Assembly: GCA_039545335.1 (NCBI GenBank)
Contig: BCIN01000002.1
Span: 1,908,484-1,972,483, forward strand
DNA: 64,000 bases
Reading direction: 5' to 3'
Source: Kondoa subrosea
Taxonomy: Eukaryota
The notes under the pieces: model-generated
Seen by the model: the letters and a program-made list of their open reading frames with translations, nothing else
Database searches by the model: none
Told to the model about the DNA's origin: nothing
Program-made: the position numbers and the translations under genes
Shown here: positions 3,491-62,500 of the stretch, one piece after another
Layout of the letters: every line of letters begins with the position of its first letter
Position numbering within the stretch: the first letter of the stretch is position 1

Positions 3491-6400
3491 TTAAGCAGTG
3501 TTACCAGCGCTGTATCTGTCGATGTTCGGAGGATCACCTGCAGGCGGTGCATATTGCATGGACTGCCGAGCTGGTGTTGGCTGAGTTATCCCAGCACTAT
3601 GATCCCAAGCATTAGATGGTGGAGCAGGAGGAGGAGGAGGGAAAGCAGGTGCTCCAGGAGTGAAGCTATTGCGATTGTTATGCATAAGAGATGTTTGAGA
3701 ATTGTTGTAGCTTCCAGGTGTCGACTGCTGTTGAAAAGAAGGGGCAGGAGCAGCATAGTTTTGTTGAGAATAAGGTTGGGGTGCATAAGTTGGCGATACA
3801 TGAGGACTGTTATGTGCTTGTGCCATAGCTGGTACGACCGGAGCTACGTTGTTCCGTTTTGAACGATGGGCATTGTACGCTGCCGAAGGTGCAGTTTTTC
3901 GGGTTTTGCTTCTTCTACAGCATGCTCGAACACAGCTGTAGATTATTGCCAATACTATAAGACCTGCCACAACAATGACCGGGATAGCTGGAAATCCTAG
4001 TCAGATAGGAATGATGGCGCTGCAGGATGCTCACAAATCTGTTTATTATTGGTGATCCAGCTTGCAGCAGCTTCTTGCCATGGACCATTTTGACATTCGC
4101 CGCCAGTACACTGTCAAAGAAAGGTAAAATTCAGTTTCTTCAGCTCATTCAAGCTTCCATAGGATCCCTCACCCTTCCCGCAAGCCCGCATGATGTGCCA
4201 TCAGCGAAATTAGAGTCAAGTATTATGCATTGGCTACTTGATTGCCCAGGCGCTTGACAAGTCTATATTTCAAAAGTAGAGGTTAAGCGGCTTTACGGAA
4301 CGACCAAAGCAGTTAACTGACCACTTGACAATTTGAGCTAGCTCCTCCACAAGCTCTGGTAACTCCCAGAGATGAACCCTGCGTTTTACATTGCAGGTCT
4401 CGACTGGTGCAGATTCCATTGGCGCACTTGAGCCCTTGACCTGCCTCGCCACAGCTCGTTCCTGTTCCAAGATGTCAGGGACATTGATCCGATACAAGAT
4501 TGAGAGTATCGGACCATCTTTGGTAGTCTGATCTTCAGGACAGCTTGCAGAAGAGCCAGTACAATTCTCGGCTTGATCGCACTGCGCATTCACAGATGGA
4601 CGGCAGACTTTCGACGAGGATGAGAATTGACAGGATTCTTCACAACAGCTAGAATTGAGAGGATCGCAGACAGAACCCTGAGTGAACTTGCACTCAGAAG
4701 TGCAGCAGCTACTACCTCCTTGATTTCCGCTGCATGAACGCCAAAAAGCGTCAGCGAATCTCACATAGAGTCAGATCGAGTACTGACGGATCACATTGTT
4801 CCCCTATGGCAAGAAATGAGCTTGGATAACAAGGAATAGACAGAAAGCTGACCAGGCTCAAGAATACCATTTCCACATTGAGAAGTACTCAGAGTGGAAC
4901 GTGTACCAGGTTCGTAGAGACATGTCGTGTTCAAGGTGGATTGCAGAACAGAACAAACGTTGCCGATAGTACACGGACTGAAATCGCTGACGTTCTGAGT
5001 ACTGACGGGCGACATGATGTAAGCGCTGCCCGAATTGCAATTATTGCTTGTCAAAGGACAACAAGCTGAACCGGATTGAGAGGTTCCTGAGCAACCAGAA
5101 ACGCAGCTGGTTCGACAGTTAGATGACGCGGGTTGATGATTGTATTGACCAAACTTACTCATGCACAGCTATGATATGCATAGTCAGACGTGATTCACTT
5201 GACAGAGCAGTAGAAATACTGACCACCGAAATTATGCCCAATTTCATGAGCGATTGTGGTCCAAGTTCTATTTATGAGATGCTCAATTCAGCCTCTGCAA
5301 GACGCTGGCTTTGAATATTACCCACCGATCCGTCAAAGCTGTTACCGCAGTGCCGGAAGTACTTTGGCTATTTGAGCAAGACATGAACTAGAGAAAGCAA
5401 TGGCAAGACAACGATTGAAAACATACCCTTGACTGCTTGATGTTTCGACCCTACACAATTGACCTAACCAAGCTACACCGACTTCTTGTCCGGTATTGCA
5501 TGCCGTAAGGAGATGCCAACTAAATAAACAGCAAAGATAAGCGGTTCGGTTCAACGCAAAGGAGATTGACTTACAGTCCCGCACCGTCTGCACCTCCTTT
5601 ACTACCTCTCCATTGACTGAAGAGACTTAATCTCGCATTGAGATCAACCCCACCTCCACTTGAGCCTGAACATGCAACATTCCACGCATTATTTTGATCC
5701 GCTGTAGTTGGGCAAGAAGCATCCATGACGTTCATCTCTCTGAATTCATAGGGTCAGTCTGGTACTCGTCAACAAGGCGGAGAAACTTACACTACACCAA
5801 TTGAAACATTAAAGGTTCTTTGGTAAAGCCCGCTGACTGTATTGATCTCTGCTAGGATTTGTCCTATTATTCTTCATATCAGCTCGCGATCTGTGAAGAG
5901 AGAAAAATAGCAACTGACTTCTAGCAGCATCTTGTGATCCATAAGCTTGAACAGCCGTACAATCTGCTGCGACGCCAATGAAGAGGACTCGTTGATCTTT
6001 GGGGCACCCATTTGTTGATCCTATTGTGTTTACAAAAGAACTGCTGCTGTTCTGTCCGCCAGCTATATCTTGTCGTTTTGCAAATTGACGCGGATGACTT
6101 GCCGGAACGGGAAGAGGCAAAGAAGGATGGCTGAGAAGACCGCTGAGCCATGAAGATTCAGCCGGTCTCGAGAAGCCAAAGATAGAGTCGTCGAATGCTA
6201 GTTGTTGAGGAGTATTATAGACTGGATTTGATAGATCATTGTTGAAGTCGAGCGAGTCGTGAGAACACGAATGATGTTGTAGCTCGTCGTCTTCGTATGT
6301 ATCCATTTCGCGAGCTATGATAGTTGCACCACCAACTCGACCTCTTCTGGCCAAGGCAGATTTAGGTGGTTCAGGATCATATTCCGAGCGATCTCGTAGA

Positions 6401-8916: not shown

Positions 8917-14037
<5,121 letters not shown>

Positions 14038-14112
14038 TCGAGGCCAAAGAGTGAGTGCTGCTTGTAACGGAAAAAAACAAATGTAATGCACAATCAACAG
14101 TAACGGCCTGAG

Positions 14113-15305
14113 ATGAATCAATTGGCTCGACTTGAAAGACCTAGACAGCTGCTAGCTTCTCTGCTCCTAAAATCACAATCTTTGTATTCTCCCAGACTTC
14201 GCATAGCTTTTTATGTCCTGTTGCTTCTCAATTGGCGAAACCTGCCTTTACTTTGGCATTTCAAGATCTTCACACCAGTAGTCAAGATCCTCTTCAAGTT
14301 CCACACTGGTCTGTTTACACCAAGTCCGCACTCGAGAGCCGTCGAGCTTGGTTTTCCTCGGAGAGACGCTGTGAATGAAGCTATTGGAATCAATCCTTTC
14401 GCGCCAGCTGCAACTGTGGTTACCAGATATAGGTAAATGTGGATTGCGATCGTTTAAATACTTGCTAATCAAATGTCCACAGTGTTGGCTTTTCAGATTC
14501 GGATTTCTACTTGCATCATTCCAATTCAGTTTATGCCAAGTTAGTCGTCCTCTAGTACTATGGCTTACAAGACTAAAGTCTGCTCAGAAACCTAGATCAT
14601 GCTCGCATGGAGATCTCGATGCGTATGGTTGCGCCTTTATTCGCCTTGAAGGGCTTCGCCGCCCATGTTGGCGGTTTGTCTTTTATATGGATCAAGGAGG
14701 TAAAGAGATTGTCAGATCAAACTTATTGCGTGACCTTTTGTTGACTTTTAACGCAGATTCCAATGTTTACAACATATCAAGTAGACACATGTCTAGTAGC
14801 ATGGAATGATCGGTGGTGCTTCGAACGTAAGCAAATCCCTGACGTACTGGCTGTTCGGTACTCATGAGTGCACCCAGTGCATAAATTCACACTTCCGCTT
14901 TCAGCAAAGAAGGAACGCGATACAGTCATTAGAACGGCAAGAGGCGACCGAACGCTATGTACTCTAGCTTTAACAAAGTTCACTTGTCGGTTACAAGGCA
15001 AGCCAATCGATTTAGGAAAAGGAATCGCCTTTAGTGGTTTTGGAAAGTAAGAAGCTCCTCCTCGCTTTGTGTTGTAGCTGATGATGATGCTTAGAGACGG
15101 CGCAAATTGGGCTCGGACAAAGGCATTGAGGAAACAAGGGCCGAAAGCTATCAAAGACTTCCTCACATCTGGACCGGAAGATTCTGGCATAGAGATGTAT
15201 GAGGAACAGAATCGAAAGGCATTGGCTATTATTGATCGACTGGGTGGACATGAGAAGAAGAGTGTTTGGTTGGAATTGGCCAACATTCATGCTGGTCAAG
15301 AATGA
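14113..15305 (+). CDS. Hotdog-fold thioesterase-like protein (THEM6/YBR096W family)
   Basis: Manual splicing gives LLLNWRNLPLLWHFKIF...DSDFYLHHSNSVYAK|NLDHARM...GGLSFIWIKE|IPMFTTYQVDTCLVAWNDRW, which matches the family motifs. Confidence 0.8.
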
Positions 15306-51171: not shown

Positions 51172-55028
<3,857 letters not shown>

Positions 55029-55190: not shown

Positions 55191-57513
55191 TCAATTCTCT
55201 TGCTTTTGGGATTTGCCTTCAACTGCTTCATGATTAGCGGTGATACAGACAACGACTAGCATGGGCTTACTCCTCTGCCGCTTAACGTCAATCTGGCGCG
55301 AGTCAGCTTTCCCCTTGTTGAAAGCGTCTCTGTCAAACTTGCGCGTGTCTTTCCTCTTCTTTGTTACCAATTTCACCTTCTTCTTCTTGAGAAACTCTTC
55401 TGCAATGCTCTCTGCGTTAGCTCGGAAGGTAATAAGCTGCTGAGTATTTGTCCAGACAGGTGCTTCGGGTTCTTCCTCCTCTTTCTTCACCTTTTCCTCC
55501 ATCACAGGAGGCTCTACCTTTGCTACGACAGGTGCAGGACTTTCCGTCTTCACATCAGATGCAGGGATTGGTCCGGGAGAAAGACGTTCTTCTTTGACTT
55601 TATCTTCAGCCTTCTTCATTTCCGCATCAAGATCCATTTCCGGTCCTTCAACATCCATGTCGAAGTCAGCCACATCATCTAACATCAATGATGATTACAT
55701 GAGAAGAAGAGTAAAGTAGAACAAATCGTACCATCATGATTTGCATCAGGTAAAGGACCAAAATCTTCGTCGTCACTTGATCCATGGTCGTCCGGTTTTG
55801 GACTAGCATGCTCTTCAGGTGGTTTGCGCGAAGTTTCTTCAGCCACAAGCTCCTCGGCTTCGTCCTCCACGACGACGCCTGTTAAAGGACCTTGCAATCG
55901 ATCGAGCTGGCGTTGCCTCTCTGCTTCTTCAGCCTTGATCCGTTCTTGCAGAAGTCTGCGTTCTTCTGCTTTAGCTGCTACTATTTCAGCCTGTCCAAAC
56001 CATTTCAGACGAGTACTCATGCTGTGATTATGGAAGTACTGACTTTCTGTTCAGCGATAGCCGTTGCATAGAGTCCGTCCGCAACGCCATCCTTGTATCT
56101 ATATGCGCCGATCAATACTCCAGTACAGCACAAATCATGTGAAGGCCTACGAATTACTGCCAACGGTGCCTTTGAACTCTTTTCCCTTCTTTGCCTCTAT
56201 CGCGGATGGCTAGAATAAGATCCCTGCCTTGTACGAAATCGCTCAGCCTCACCATTCCAGGTCAAAATCTGACTTAGCATGGAAACAAGATTAGCAAACC
56301 CACAGCTGCTTTAGATACACATACTTACTTGAAGCACATTTCGAAAGCGTAAGCTGCAGCAGTTGTGTTACCTGCAATACTAAGGCGGGTAGAATGATTA
56401 GAGTCTCGTTCGCCTATCCTGAGTGTTGACACCTACCCGTAAAAGTTGTAGCGCTGTTTCCTTCGAATCAGACGAGGGAAACTGAAGACAGATAGTAGCT
56501 CACGAGAATCTTTTCTCGCGGCGATGTTTCGGTGTAATGCTTGACGTCGAAAAACTGACACATAGCGGACCCCAAGCGACTCTGCCATAGAGTATTTGGA
56601 GCTGAGCTTAACAACAAATTATCAGCTTGCCGATCGCGACGGCAAATGCACTTACGATAGCTCTTCTTAGCTCCAACATCACGCCATTTGAGAGCACAAA
56701 TGCTCATTCCAGCCCTTCTAGACTGTGCTTCCTTCGTCTCATGCTCAATAACGCTGTAGCTAACTTCAGCAACAAATTCAGAGCAGAATTCTGTAATGAC
56801 TTACTCAGCTTCGGTAATATTGAGAGCTACCATTTGCCTTCGTGCCATTCTCATGGCAGCATTCGCTTCATTGGCACCAGTTCCTTCGTGCAAAGCTAAT
56901 TTGAGCGCTTTGCGGATTTTCTCGAGTGCATTCGCATCCAGCTCGTCCACTAGTATGCTGGAGTTCAAAGAGAGATCTATGATTTGATAACAGGTGAGAA
57001 GCTCACAATCCGCTTTGAGCTTTTCTTCAACAGGCACGGATTCAACTTGTGCGTACATTGTGCTCTTGTTCTTCGCTCCACTAGCTTTACGTGTAACAGC
57101 TGCTGGATCGCCGCCTTTACTTTTCCAGTACTTGTTGACGAGGGTTTTGACCTTGCTGCGGTCGATATTCAGCTCATGCAACTATAAGATGGTGAAGGTC
57201 ACGTACGGCATGTCACATTCTGCTTGCCAGGTATTGTCTTCGGCGCCATATCCCTCCCAAGAGACAAAGTATTCACGATTTCCGTACTATCTCGTAGTCA
57301 GACCAACGCGCTTCCACTTGTGTTGAAAGAAAGCAGAAAGAAAGCAGGGAGAAGGCTAAAGACGAGCGAGAATAGGGATTGGGCGAAAGAAAGGTGTATA
57401 CGTACTTTGTCTTCTCGATGGTCCAGCACTGCTTCGATGATGAAGAGTTCTCCTACAGACTCGCTGTCGCTCTCGCTTTCTGTTGCTTCACTGTCGGTCC
57501 TGTATCTGGCCAT
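55191..57513 (-). CDS. Chromodomain + DUF2786-type domain protein
   Basis: FIIEAVLDHR...EYFVSWEGYGAEDNTW chromodomain, LEKIRKALKLALHEGTGANEANAAMRMARRQM DUF2786-like hairpin, FFDVKHY, FYG, AAAYAFEM, YKDGVADGL, C-terminal AFNKGKADSRQIDV. Confidence 0.7.
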
Positions 57514-57714: not shown

Positions 57715-59426
<1,712 letters not shown>

Positions 59427-59584
59427 CGGAAAGTGACAGAAAATGTACTATAGACACTACTACGGCTAAGCTTGCTCGCCAGTGACTTTCAGCGCTGTCC
59501 TGACAGATCATGAAAATTGCCTTTACAATCTTTTGACCTTGACTACCAATTTGCGTTGCATTCACTGCTTGCGGACCTTGCACA

Positions 59585-62500
59585 ATGTCTGATAGCACAG
59601 TTCCTGTCACTGATCAGAGCGTCAATCACACGAATGGGCTCGAAACAGATTTTGCCGTTGAGACTCCCTCGAATGGAAACGAGACTATAGCTCAATCTGT
59701 CCCTGTGTCTACACCAAATCCTCAGCAACAAACCCTTTCCACCAAGCCTAACTCCTCAACCGCGCAGCACACTTTCTTTGATTCTTCTGTTGTTTCCGAG
59801 CAGACCGAGCCAGATGCTGCGATTTCTGCAACACCCACGGTCACCAACGCAGTCCCTTCTCAGCAACAGCAGACAGAAAGAGCCATTTCACCAGTATCGC
59901 AACGAATAGCCTCAATAACGGGCGTTACTGCTCAATCGAGACCTGTTAGCAACCCAGCTCTCTTACCTAGTTCTCGTCCGGCTTCAAAAGTTCCACTCAA
60001 TGCTGCTGAGAAAGCTGCTCAAGTTGCAGAAGCTCTATCGAAACTCGCTCATGTTGGACCTCCCAAACTTGACGTGCTCAAGGCTAGAATAGCTGAGAAT
60101 CCAACGGACGGAGAGGCTTGGCAAGGCTATGTTCAGCTGACGGAAGAAAGGGGAGATCTAGAAAGGACACGTCAAGTATACGAGGAACTGCTCAAAGTCT
60201 TCCCTGATTCGGTTAGTGAAGGTGGAACTTCGCTGTCAATCAGCTCAAGTCAAATACTGTCCTAACAGGCCCAACATTGGATCTCTTATGCCGATATGGA
60301 ACTCAAACACTCTCATTTCCCTCAAGTTGAAGCTATCTTTGCACGCTGTCTTCGTACATCTACCGCGGTCAATCTTTGGGCTTTCTACCTCACTTACATC
60401 CGGCGAGTCAACAAGATAGAACTCGGAGATCCAGAGAAGACCAAGCATTCTAGGACTGTGATTGTAAAAGCATACGAATTCAGTTTGGCACATATTGGGT
60501 CAGACAAGAACGCTGGCGGCTTATGGCATGATTATATTGGATTTTTGAGGAGTGCAGATGTGAGTGAATCATACATAAGTATAGTCTTAGGCTCAAAACT
60601 CTGCTAGGCGTCCGGACAATGGGAAATGCAACAGAACATGGACAGCGTTCGGAAGGCCTATCAGCAAGCCGTCACTATGCCTTTGAGCAACGTGGAACAG
60701 ATCTGGTCAGAATACAATCATTGGGAGCAGAACTTGAATAAACTCACCGTAAGTCAATCTTTCCAAATTTGCTCTGATCTAGCCTGGTCAGAATGGATCG
60801 GACGCGCTTGGTATTGTGCTCTTACACACGATGCAAGGCATGATGCATTACTCGCACAGCGAAATCGAACAACGCTACGCCCCTTTCCCTTTTTTGACTT
60901 TGACATGTTGCGCTTCACGAGACTATGTTCTGAAATGACTTTGCGCTTTTTTCCTTCCCTCTTCACCCTACTCCTACACCTATGATACAACCACAAACAG
61001 GCCAAGAAATTCATCGGTGAAAGAAGTGCAGCCTATATGACCGCTCGCAGCGCTTTAAGAGAGATGCGTCCTTTGGTCGAACCGATCGAGATCCCCATCA
61101 TCTTAGCTTCACTACCGCACCGACCGGATTGGAGCAATTCTGCAGATCGACTGTACATACAGCAGTGGCGGCAATACTTGAAGTGGGAAGAAGGCAACCC
61201 TTTACAGCTCGAGGATAAGAACGCACTCAACATGCGTATCCTGTTCGCTCATCGGAAATCTTTGGTCCATCTGAGGTTCTATCCCGAAGCATGGTAAGGC
61301 TGCGATTTCGGGCATTAGATCGGAATCTGACGTGCAATACAGGGCTCTAGCTTCGAATTTTGCAAAGTCGATAGGCAAGAACGAAGAGGCAGCAAATATG
61401 CTCAAAAATGGCTTTACAGCCAATGATACGAGGTTTGAAATTGCTCTCATTACTGCTGATACTCTCTGACTACTTCGGCAGTCTGCTCCTTGGTTTTGCT
61501 TATGCTGAAGCAGAAGAAGCCAAGCGGAATTTTGAAGAAAGTCATAAAGCCTACGATTCCCTCTTATCTCGCTTCCATGCCAGTTTGGCCGATTTGATCA
61601 GTAGAAGAGACAAAAGTATAGAGAAAGCTACAACAGAAGCGCAACAAGCTACAAAATCTGAAACAGCTGAGGCTGACGGCGAGAAGACTGTAGGTGAAGA
61701 AATCGTTCAGATTAGGGAAGCAATTACTTCAGAAGCTCAGCCTGCCATTGATTCGCTCAAAAAAGCTGCTGCAAGTGTTTGGATTGCGCAAATGCGGTTT
61801 GCCAGGAGAGCTGAAGTGAGTCAATTCCGAAGTAGTGCTACGTGGTTCTCAATCTCTTCAAACAGGGCATCAAACAAGCTAGAGCCATATTCGGTAAAGC
61901 AAGAAAGTCGGAACACCTAGTGTGGCAGGTTGTCGAAGCAGATGGTCAGTTCGAGTGAATTGACCAGCATTCGAATACCTAATCATGCTGTTGACAGCGA
62001 TGATGGAGTATCACTGGAACAAAGAACCTAAAGTAGCTACCAACGTCTTTGAGCTGGGATTGAAGACCTTCAGCGAAGAACCAGCTTACGTTGTCCGGTA
62101 TTTGGATTTCCTGATCAATACGAATGACGACACAAGTAAGTAACTTCCCGTCCATTCCTATTTATTACCATGCTAATCTACGAAATGTAGACGCTCGAGC
62201 AGTGTTTGAAAGAACCATTGGAAAAATCCCGCCTGAACATGCTAAACCGCTTTGGGATCGCTGGGCACGATTTGAGAATCAGTTTGGTGATCTAACAGCT
62301 ATGCAAAAGCTCGACAGTCGGATAGCGGAGGCATATCCAAACAGTGCGTACCCATTTCCTTTTTTAGTATTTCATCGTGTCTGAATTTGAAACCTAGGCG
62401 AACCTGTATTACGATTCGTTGAACGACATGTTCATCAAGGTCTTACAGAAATGCTCACTAAAGATCTTGGCTTCCTACCACCTGGAGCAGCAGCGAAAGC

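Follow-up and report, generated by a model that had tools for sequence, protein, structure and literature searches.

Proteins of the HP1/Swi6 type are laid out as a chromodomain, a hinge and a dimerising chromoshadow domain, and CDY and CDYL combine an N-terminal chromodomain with a module of different origin, the crotonase fold. DUF2786 and DUF7168, in turn, are large families of phages, bacteria and fungi to which no function is assigned. From a 64,000-nucleotide (nt) window of the Kondoa subrosea genome (contig BCIN01000002.1, positions 1,908,484 to 1,972,483; the window is this whole stretch as analysed, and positions below count from its first letter), a minus-strand gene at 55191-57513 can be deduced that joins an N-terminal chromodomain to a DUF2786/DUF7168 module. 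The fusion is real and apparently new. With moderate confidence, the locus is read as one intact, intron-rich fungal gene, a DUF2786/DUF7168 orthologue which has gained a chromodomain within its N-terminal tail and whose product would act as a methyl-lysine-tethered, possibly bivalent chromatin factor. A full-text search of the literature finds DUF2786 named in five papers, in two of them only in tables (a ClpC1 interactome and lists of methylated sites); no paper naming DUF7168, PF10979, IPR024498 or PF23771 was found, and a description of the chromodomain-DUF2786 architecture was not found either. Also among the other proteins and loci examined here the architecture has no counterpart, which agrees with an earlier sequence-only reading of the locus that could not recognise it as a characterised protein. 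Sequence offers few hints at the role of such a family; fusion to a reader domain whose action is well understood is among them and points its fungal DUF2786/DUF7168 branch towards chromatin; being based on one gene in one genome, the finding is a lead, not a rule. The gene and the parts of its predicted product (aa, amino acid positions) are as follows.

55191..57513, minus strand: whole gene, 14 exons and 13 GT-AG introns, 521 codons plus stop
57451..57495, minus strand: acidic Ser-rich N-terminal stretch, aa 7-21, immediately before the chromodomain; read from the translation, with a similar N-terminus in relatives
57116..57450, minus strand: chromodomain, aa 22-76, running from the end of exon 1 through exon 2 into the start of exon 3, from Pfam and PDB matches; the span includes introns 1 and 2
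57008..57115, minus strand: basic hinge, aa 77-112, in exon 3, with a Y-A-x-V-E stretch aligning to the N-terminal region of the relatives
56807..56938, minus strand: DUF2786 helical hairpin, aa 117-160, in exon 4, from Pfam PF10979, phrog_421 and phmmer
55982..56722, minus strand: DUF7168 alpha/beta core, aa 172-292, exons 5-12, from a partial PF23771 match and colinear alignment
55883..56058, minus strand: long helix, likely a coiled coil, aa 285-325, aligning with helix 153-208 in the model of the Auricularia relative (P0006)
55464..55882, minus strand: acidic low-complexity insert, probably disordered, aa 326-447; its counterpart in the P0006 model has a predicted local distance difference test score (pLDDT) <50
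55215..55463, minus strand: conserved C-terminal helices and basic tail, aa 448-514, kept in 13 of 13 aligned relatives

The chromodomain assignment is carried by exon 2. Used alone, this exon matches the Pfam family Chromo (PF00385) with an E-value of 1.8e-5, its residues 4-23 covering profile positions 17-36 of 53 (20 of the 53 positions), and a phmmer search of the PDB with the same 26 residues finds 60 distinct sequences at E ≤ 1 (best E 4.8e-5), nearly all of which are chromodomains, i.e., those of CDY/CDYL, CBX1-8, HP1, Swi6, Chp1 and MPP8. After splicing, the 13 residues either side of the segment placed by Pfam fill the 53-position profile without a gap. Candidate cage residues are F24 (57444-57442), W46 (57259-57257) and Y49 (57250-57248). 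In the PDB alignment of exon 2, W46 and Y49 line up with the cage W and Y of CDYL, and F24, encoded by exon 1, was put at the first cage position by spacing and read by eye; in the same way, by eye and spacing and without a score, the first strand and the last helix of the domain were assigned. The E-D-N-T-W stretch is retained, and intron 2 splits the codon of Pro63 in a D-M-P turn before the last helix, a turn which resembles D-C-P in HP1. The N-terminal chromodomain claimed in the sequence-only reading can be recognised in this region, most probably as a canonical HP1/CDY-type domain, and with its aromatic cage apparently intact it would be expected to bind methyl-lysine. Of the two profile matches proposed there as a check, PF10979 is found above and PF00385 marginally under the respective Pfam cut-off.

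The gene model starts with the ATG at 57513-57511, which has a TAG in the same frame 9 nt before it, and ends with the stop codon TGA at 55193-55191. Its 13 introns have lengths of 48-119 nt and are all bordered by GT..AG, the joined exons forming a single open frame of 521 codons. Both the coordinates and the single spliced minus-strand frame given in the sequence-only reading are exact, and all motifs quoted there recur in the spliced translation: FIIEAVLDHR in exon 1, YFVSWEGY and NTW in exon 2, FYG across exons 7/8, AAYAFE in exon 8, YKDGVADG across exons 10/11 and AFNKGKADSRQID in exon 13. Because homology with the fungal family outlined below agrees with it, the splice model is independently confirmed. 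The exons, all taken from this model, are the following.

57513-57406, minus strand: exon 1
57286-57207, minus strand: exon 2, 80 nt, 26 residues
57155-57007, minus strand: exon 3
56949-56805, minus strand: exon 4
56753-56656, minus strand: exon 5
56601-56504, minus strand: exon 6
56453-56437, minus strand: exon 7
56379-56329, minus strand: exon 8
56272-56253, minus strand: exon 9
56196-56151, minus strand: exon 10
56098-56044, minus strand: exon 11
55990-55732, minus strand: exon 12
55678-55271, minus strand: exon 13
55222-55191, minus strand: exon 14

By the arrangement of exons and frames, chromodomain and DUF module are predicted to belong to one gene, two separate genes being very unlikely because the last helix of the chromodomain and the N-terminal region of the fungal family share exon 3 and because skipping of exon 2, with its 80 nt, would break the frame. 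On exon 3, the last helix is followed, 20 residues on, by the basic stretch bearing the Y-A-x-V-E motif. An open reading frame (ORF) at 56801-57181 runs from this helix into the DUF2786 hairpin even with intron 3 retained, and retention of intron 2 would lead to a stop before the last helix. From this exon continuity and frame logic we infer a single transcript. As a separate observation, introns 3 (56950-57006), 4 (56754-56804) and 5 (56602-56655) measure 57, 51 and 54 nt, respectively, each divisible by three; introns 3 and 5 are free of stops, so that their retention would merely add 19 or 18 residues, whereas the donor site of intron 4 contains a TAA.

The second part of the fusion was likewise approached with pieces of the gene, since the Pfam scan covered seven single-exon or in-frame pieces; four of these seven do not match any Pfam family, and a chromoshadow domain was not detected in any of them. 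The piece comprising exon 3, intron 3 and exon 4 matches DUF2786 (PF10979) at 25.3 bits (cut-off 23.9; E 1.5e-5), corroborating the DUF2786-like hairpin already noticed in the sequence-only reading, and the hairpin piece finds phrog_421 in PHROGs (E 4e-5). Exon 6 alone reaches 20.9 bits against DUF7168 (PF23771; cut-off 25.5) over 25 residues. Within the DUF7168 core, the FYG, AAYAFE and N-x-Y-x-x-G-V-x-x-G motifs are present, and the C-terminal part bears the motifs W-x-x-x-Q-L-x-x-F-R, A-F-x-x-G-x-x-D-x-x-x-I-D and K-R-x-R-I-E-G. Other searches with individual pieces were less productive: the hairpin piece gave just two chance-level rows against PDB sequences and one DUF2786 cluster at 0.75 in the Atlas, which is a lead only, and neither the exon 3-4 piece nor the exon 5-6 piece retrieved a match in word-indexed protein searches (259 and 18 candidates, respectively).

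The affiliation becomes clear from the fungal relatives. A phmmer search with the exon 3-4 piece in 1.84 billion representative proteins (E ≤ 0.001) resulted in eight proteins, all aligned solely on the hairpin and all annotated as hypothetical or DUF2786 proteins, seven of them from Agaricomycetes (Arthromyces, Tephrocybe, Termitomyces, Cristinia, Auricularia, Asterophora and Exidia). According to Pfam (E ≤ 0.1), DUF2786 is present in all eight and DUF7168 in seven, the latter with PF23771 scores of 40-83 bits, and Chromo as well as a KH domain in none. In blastp, the spliced product matches all eight, the best at 36.7% identity over 420 columns (aa 110-513, E 4.7e-55), and the proteins from Auricularia and Exidia cover aa 110-515 at an E-value of about 1e-55. 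A profile built from six relatives, applied to the 8000 candidates with the most words in common, retrieved 13 proteins, of which 11 had not come up before; they include such from Dacrymycetes (Calocera), Ustilaginomycotina (Pseudozyma, Moesziomyces and Violaceomyces) and one ascomycete (Vermiconidia); PF00385 is not among the precomputed Pfam assignments of any of the 13. Finally, the spliced product scores 353.5 bits over aa 81-517 against a 17-sequence family profile, and it keeps 60 of the 67 near-invariant columns, i.e., those common to at least 12 of 13 relatives.

Members of this fungal family, such as Exidia glandulosa KZW01489.1, Auricularia subglabra EJD50661.1, Cristinia sonorae KAH8102617.1, a Calocera cornea protein and Pseudozyma flocculosa PFL1_01930, all named as hypothetical or DUF2786 domain-containing, are colinear with the window protein over aa 81-517 at 34-37% identity, comprising hairpin, core, long helix, acidic insert, C-terminal helices and basic tail. 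Common features are an acidic Ser-rich N-terminus, basic stretches of the KRKR type, a coiled coil, a long acidic disordered insert, whose length differs among relatives, and a conserved basic C-terminus. By this profile alignment, the DUF2786/DUF7168 family accounts for the rest of the window protein, and the downstream motifs that the sequence-only reading had assigned to the DUF2786 family do belong to a conserved family, more precisely of the DUF7168 type. Judged from these comparisons, the DUF part is the orthologue of a family widespread in Basidiomycota and Ascomycota, an old nuclear-type fungal protein in which only the chromodomain appears to be new to the lineage.

What distinguishes the window protein from these relatives is the chromodomain, which has been inserted behind the acidic N-terminus and ahead of the basic stretch and occurs in none of the 19 relatives. 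Relatives are also encoded at eight metagenome loci; there, the chromodomain core motif is absent from all eight, and the first 112 residues of the window protein obtain nothing better than E 0.75 in tblastn. The fungal clusters in the Atlas with 51-71 members, mostly Ascomycota, combine DUF7168 and DUF2786, and Chromo is listed in none of the nearest ones. Because the 19 relatives, the eight metagenome loci and the nearest Atlas clusters all are without a chromodomain, the fusion looks lineage-specific, and the simplest reading of the sequence comparison would be a gain of the chromodomain in the lineage of the window protein. An acidic D-[YF]-[IV]-E stretch occurring in some relatives was considered as a lost chromodomain strand and rejected as too short and of low complexity.

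N-terminal tails in the fungal DUF2786/DUF7168 family are generally variable and prone to repeats. In the protein from Lyophyllum shimeji (P0009), residues of about 440-526 repeat the N-terminal region of the family, with acidic and basic segments, Y-x-A-R-V and the start of the hairpin, and the database model probably extends into a second tandem copy. The Calocera cornea protein (P0013) has a doubled stretch at residues of about 20-70 with basic residues, V-E-I-V-S-E and an acidic D-E-Y-R-P end. Directly past the coiled coil, a V/M/L/I-E-D/E core is found in 12 of 13 aligned relatives, usually in a form like K-V-E-D-V, which resembles the sumoylation consensus; the window protein reads V-V-V-E-D there, without the lysine, and counts of sumoylation-like motifs are modest at 0-6 per protein.

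The hairpin and the alpha/beta core are also common to phage and bacterial DUF2786/DUF7168 proteins (phrog_421, e.g., BcepGomr gp58), which have only about 230-250 residues and are devoid of the acidic insert, the nuclear-type basic stretches and the chromodomain. Three of the fungal relatives match phrog_421 with E-values from 4e-19 to 6e-24, and none of these three matches any family in NCBIfam or PADLOC. In the viral models of BFVD, 26 phage proteins match at E ≤ 0.001, all uncharacterised or named DUF2786/DUF7168, and tblastn matched 19 phage records; the exon 5-6 piece gave only three chance-level rows against phages in tblastn (E 7). The idea put forward in the sequence-only reading, of a prokaryote-type module recruited to methylated chromatin, can consequently be retained only in part: the fold is common with phage proteins, but the module is not a fresh import, belonging as it does to the widespread fungal family. 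In Burkholderia phage BcepGomr (locus L009, homologue at 5013-5717) and Achromobacter phage ART (locus L010, 5043-5747), the homologue has the same position: in both, it adjoins a divergently transcribed replicative primase-helicase and lies upstream of genes for an exonuclease, a helicase and a Sak4-like annealing protein. In the latter phage, a small DnaJ-like gene is situated two genes downstream of the homologue.

For structural insight, models of the Auricularia relative (P0006) were used. Its AlphaFold model (mean pLDDT 71, predicted template modelling score 0.55) consists, in this order, of a confident helical hairpin, a beta-alpha-beta-beta-alpha core, a helix of 55 residues, a disordered acidic insert and confident C-terminal helices; the counterpart of the C-terminal helices of the window protein has a pLDDT of 73-95. 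From this layout it follows that the far C-terminal motifs belong to the same conserved family, with the insert lying between them and the core. A two-copy model of residues 1-212 scored 0.33, compared to 0.00 for the best of three controls. The mark for a dimer, 0.32, is reached by 21 of 30 proteins solved as pairs of one chain and by none of 23 proteins solved as single chains; on eukaryotes, it is reached by 17 of 29 pairs, but by just one of the seven pairs without an older solved relative, and by none of 30 single chains. Runs of the dimer model share at least 97% of contacts, with a partner pLDDT of at least 74, and the modelled interface is formed by residues 139-170, including the conserved N-x-Y-x-x-G-V motif that is kept in the window protein. 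The model supports, but does not show, that the DUF2786/DUF7168 core is a homodimer.

Taken together, the parts of the window protein follow each other in the order acidic Ser-rich stretch, chromodomain, basic hinge, dimer-modelled module, acidic disordered region and basic C-terminus. The first four, with a three-aromatic cage in the chromodomain, recall the HP1/Swi6 arrangement in the same order. In contrast to HP1/Swi6, the window protein has no chromoshadow match, its presumably dimerising part is the unrelated DUF2786/DUF7168 fold, and it is far longer, with an acidic insert of roughly 120 residues. Its mode of action may be like that of HP1, but the lack of a chromoshadow domain sets it outside the HP1 family. 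The likeness to CDY and CDYL, both among the best PDB matches of exon 2, lies in an N-terminal chromodomain fused to a module of other ancestry, whereas the module in the window protein is unrelated to the crotonase fold. The mechanism proposed is that the chromodomain engages, with its F24, W46 and Y49 cage, a methylated lysine of a histone, H3K9me2/3 and H3K27me3 being the likeliest marks, and that the basic hinge adds unspecific contacts to nucleic acid or the nucleosome. Homodimerisation via hairpin and alpha/beta core would then present two chromodomains together, making the protein an HP1-like bivalent reader on a dimerisation module other than chromoshadow, and the acidic disordered insert and the conserved C-terminal helices would carry the activity proper to the family. 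Should the dimer model prove true, the HP1 layout would have been invented a second time, independently and on a scaffold unrelated to that of HP1. A broader version, in which by Rosetta-stone logic the entire fungal DUF2786/DUF7168 family would be dimeric chromatin factors, with the window protein as an HP1-analogous bivalent reader of heterochromatin bearing a phage-type dimerisation domain, appears rather doubtful at present.

Several observations weigh against a chromodomain-bearing, dimeric chromatin factor. The Chromo score stems from exon 2 only and with 25.0 bits lies marginally below the Pfam cut-off of 25.1, and neither exon 1 nor exon 3, each taken alone, matches any sequence in the PDB. 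The dimer score barely attains the mark and was obtained with the Auricularia relative, not with the window protein. A chromodomain-less isoform may be produced from Met95 in exon 3, considering that the Auricularia relative begins just before the hairpin. The window protein has lost seven of the 67 near-invariant residues and sits on a long branch of 2.45 changes per column without a well-supported placement in the tree, which by itself points no more closely than to a probable origin in Basidiomycota. A relative with the fusion was not found in these searches. Fold searches, too, yield no function: the Foldseek comparison suggested with the sequence-only reading found no solved relative of the Auricularia model in the PDB at E ≤ 0.001, and the best VIA-align hit, with a Z of 6.4, is within the range of unrelated folds (Z under 8).

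The fold comparisons bear on a first alternative, in which the chromodomain reads its mark as proposed and the core is a KH-like nucleic-acid-binding or replication/recombination module, not a dimeriser, tethering RNA or single-stranded DNA transactions to marked chromatin. Over model residues 67-152, VIA-align lists KH domains at Z 5.3-6.4, led by Nova-2 KH3 (Z 6.4, root-mean-square deviation 2.8, 79 residues aligned) and with further rows for MEX-3C, Krr1, KHNYN and exosome Rrp4, Foldseek adds PCBP2, FMRP, hnRNP K and FBP, and the phage relatives are located in replication/recombination modules. However, all KH matches stay below what separates related from unrelated folds (Z under 8; Foldseek E above 0.1, with the KH rows at 0.5-1 in the noise range), and in the alignment neither the window protein nor its relatives have a G-x-x-G loop joining the first strand to the helix. 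Through the KH rows and the phage gene context, a nucleic-acid role stays in play as an alternative to the dimeriser, although we judge this alternative unlikely. The helical-hairpin rows of VIA-align (Vta1 and SGTA; model residues 9-48) are likewise within the unrelated-fold range.

According to a second alternative, the fusion is real, but the chromodomain was captured from the integrase of a chromovirus (Ty3/gypsy) or represents a decaying insertion, would not bind methyl-lysine and is a passenger or serves contacts to RNA, DNA or protein. Fungal genomes carry chromodomain-bearing retroelements, the fusion is seen here alone and the window protein is on a long branch, all of which would fit such a capture. 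On the other hand, all three cage positions are aromatic with the E-D-N-T-W stretch retained, the best PDB matches are cellular readers of the HP1, CDY and CBX types, two frame-preserving introns split the chromodomain, and reverse transcriptase, integrase or any other transposon family was not detected among the 64 long ORFs of the window scanned, so that little probability is given to this alternative as well. Least probable, and to be considered very improbable, is that the splice model has merged a chromodomain gene with a DUF2786/DUF7168 gene lying head-to-tail, or that translation of the main product begins at Met95, leaving out the chromodomain: the missing chromodomain in all 19 relatives, the start of the Auricularia relative just before the hairpin and the in-frame ATG in exon 3 would agree with it, but the last helix and the family-homologous N-terminal stretch lie on exon 3 in one frame with no stop between, a chromodomain-only product would meet no stop codon before the hairpin, the acidic Ser-rich N-terminus typical of the relatives sits upstream of the chromodomain in exon 1, and the introns in this part, with only 51-57 nt, leave no space for a second promoter.

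The window surrounding the fusion gene is an ordinary fungal chromosome. Its content of G and C is even at 43-49%, and a scan for protein families covered 64 of 89 stop-to-stop ORFs of at least 110 aa, the 25 left out being mostly opposite-strand overlaps and pieces of the fusion gene; among the proteins encoded are tubulin, ribosomal protein L3 and a bZIP protein. Directly downstream of the fusion gene and on the same strand lies an MCM helicase gene (51716-55016, minus strand). Upstream, a divergent TIP49/RuvB-like gene (57880-59400, plus strand) is followed by a Suf/Rna14-like gene (59543-61917, plus strand). As the upstream intergenic stretch has only a few hundred bases, a bidirectional promoter for the fusion gene and the TIP49/RuvB-like gene is likely. 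Farther away, a pentafunctional AROM gene of the Aro1 type for the shikimate pathway (9002-14151, minus strand) holds its five enzyme domains in one frame, as is typical of fungi and some protists, in support of the window being fungal, and ORFs at 4273-5168 (minus strand) with Reprolysin-like metalloprotease and disintegrin domains suggest a gene for an ADAM-type protease.

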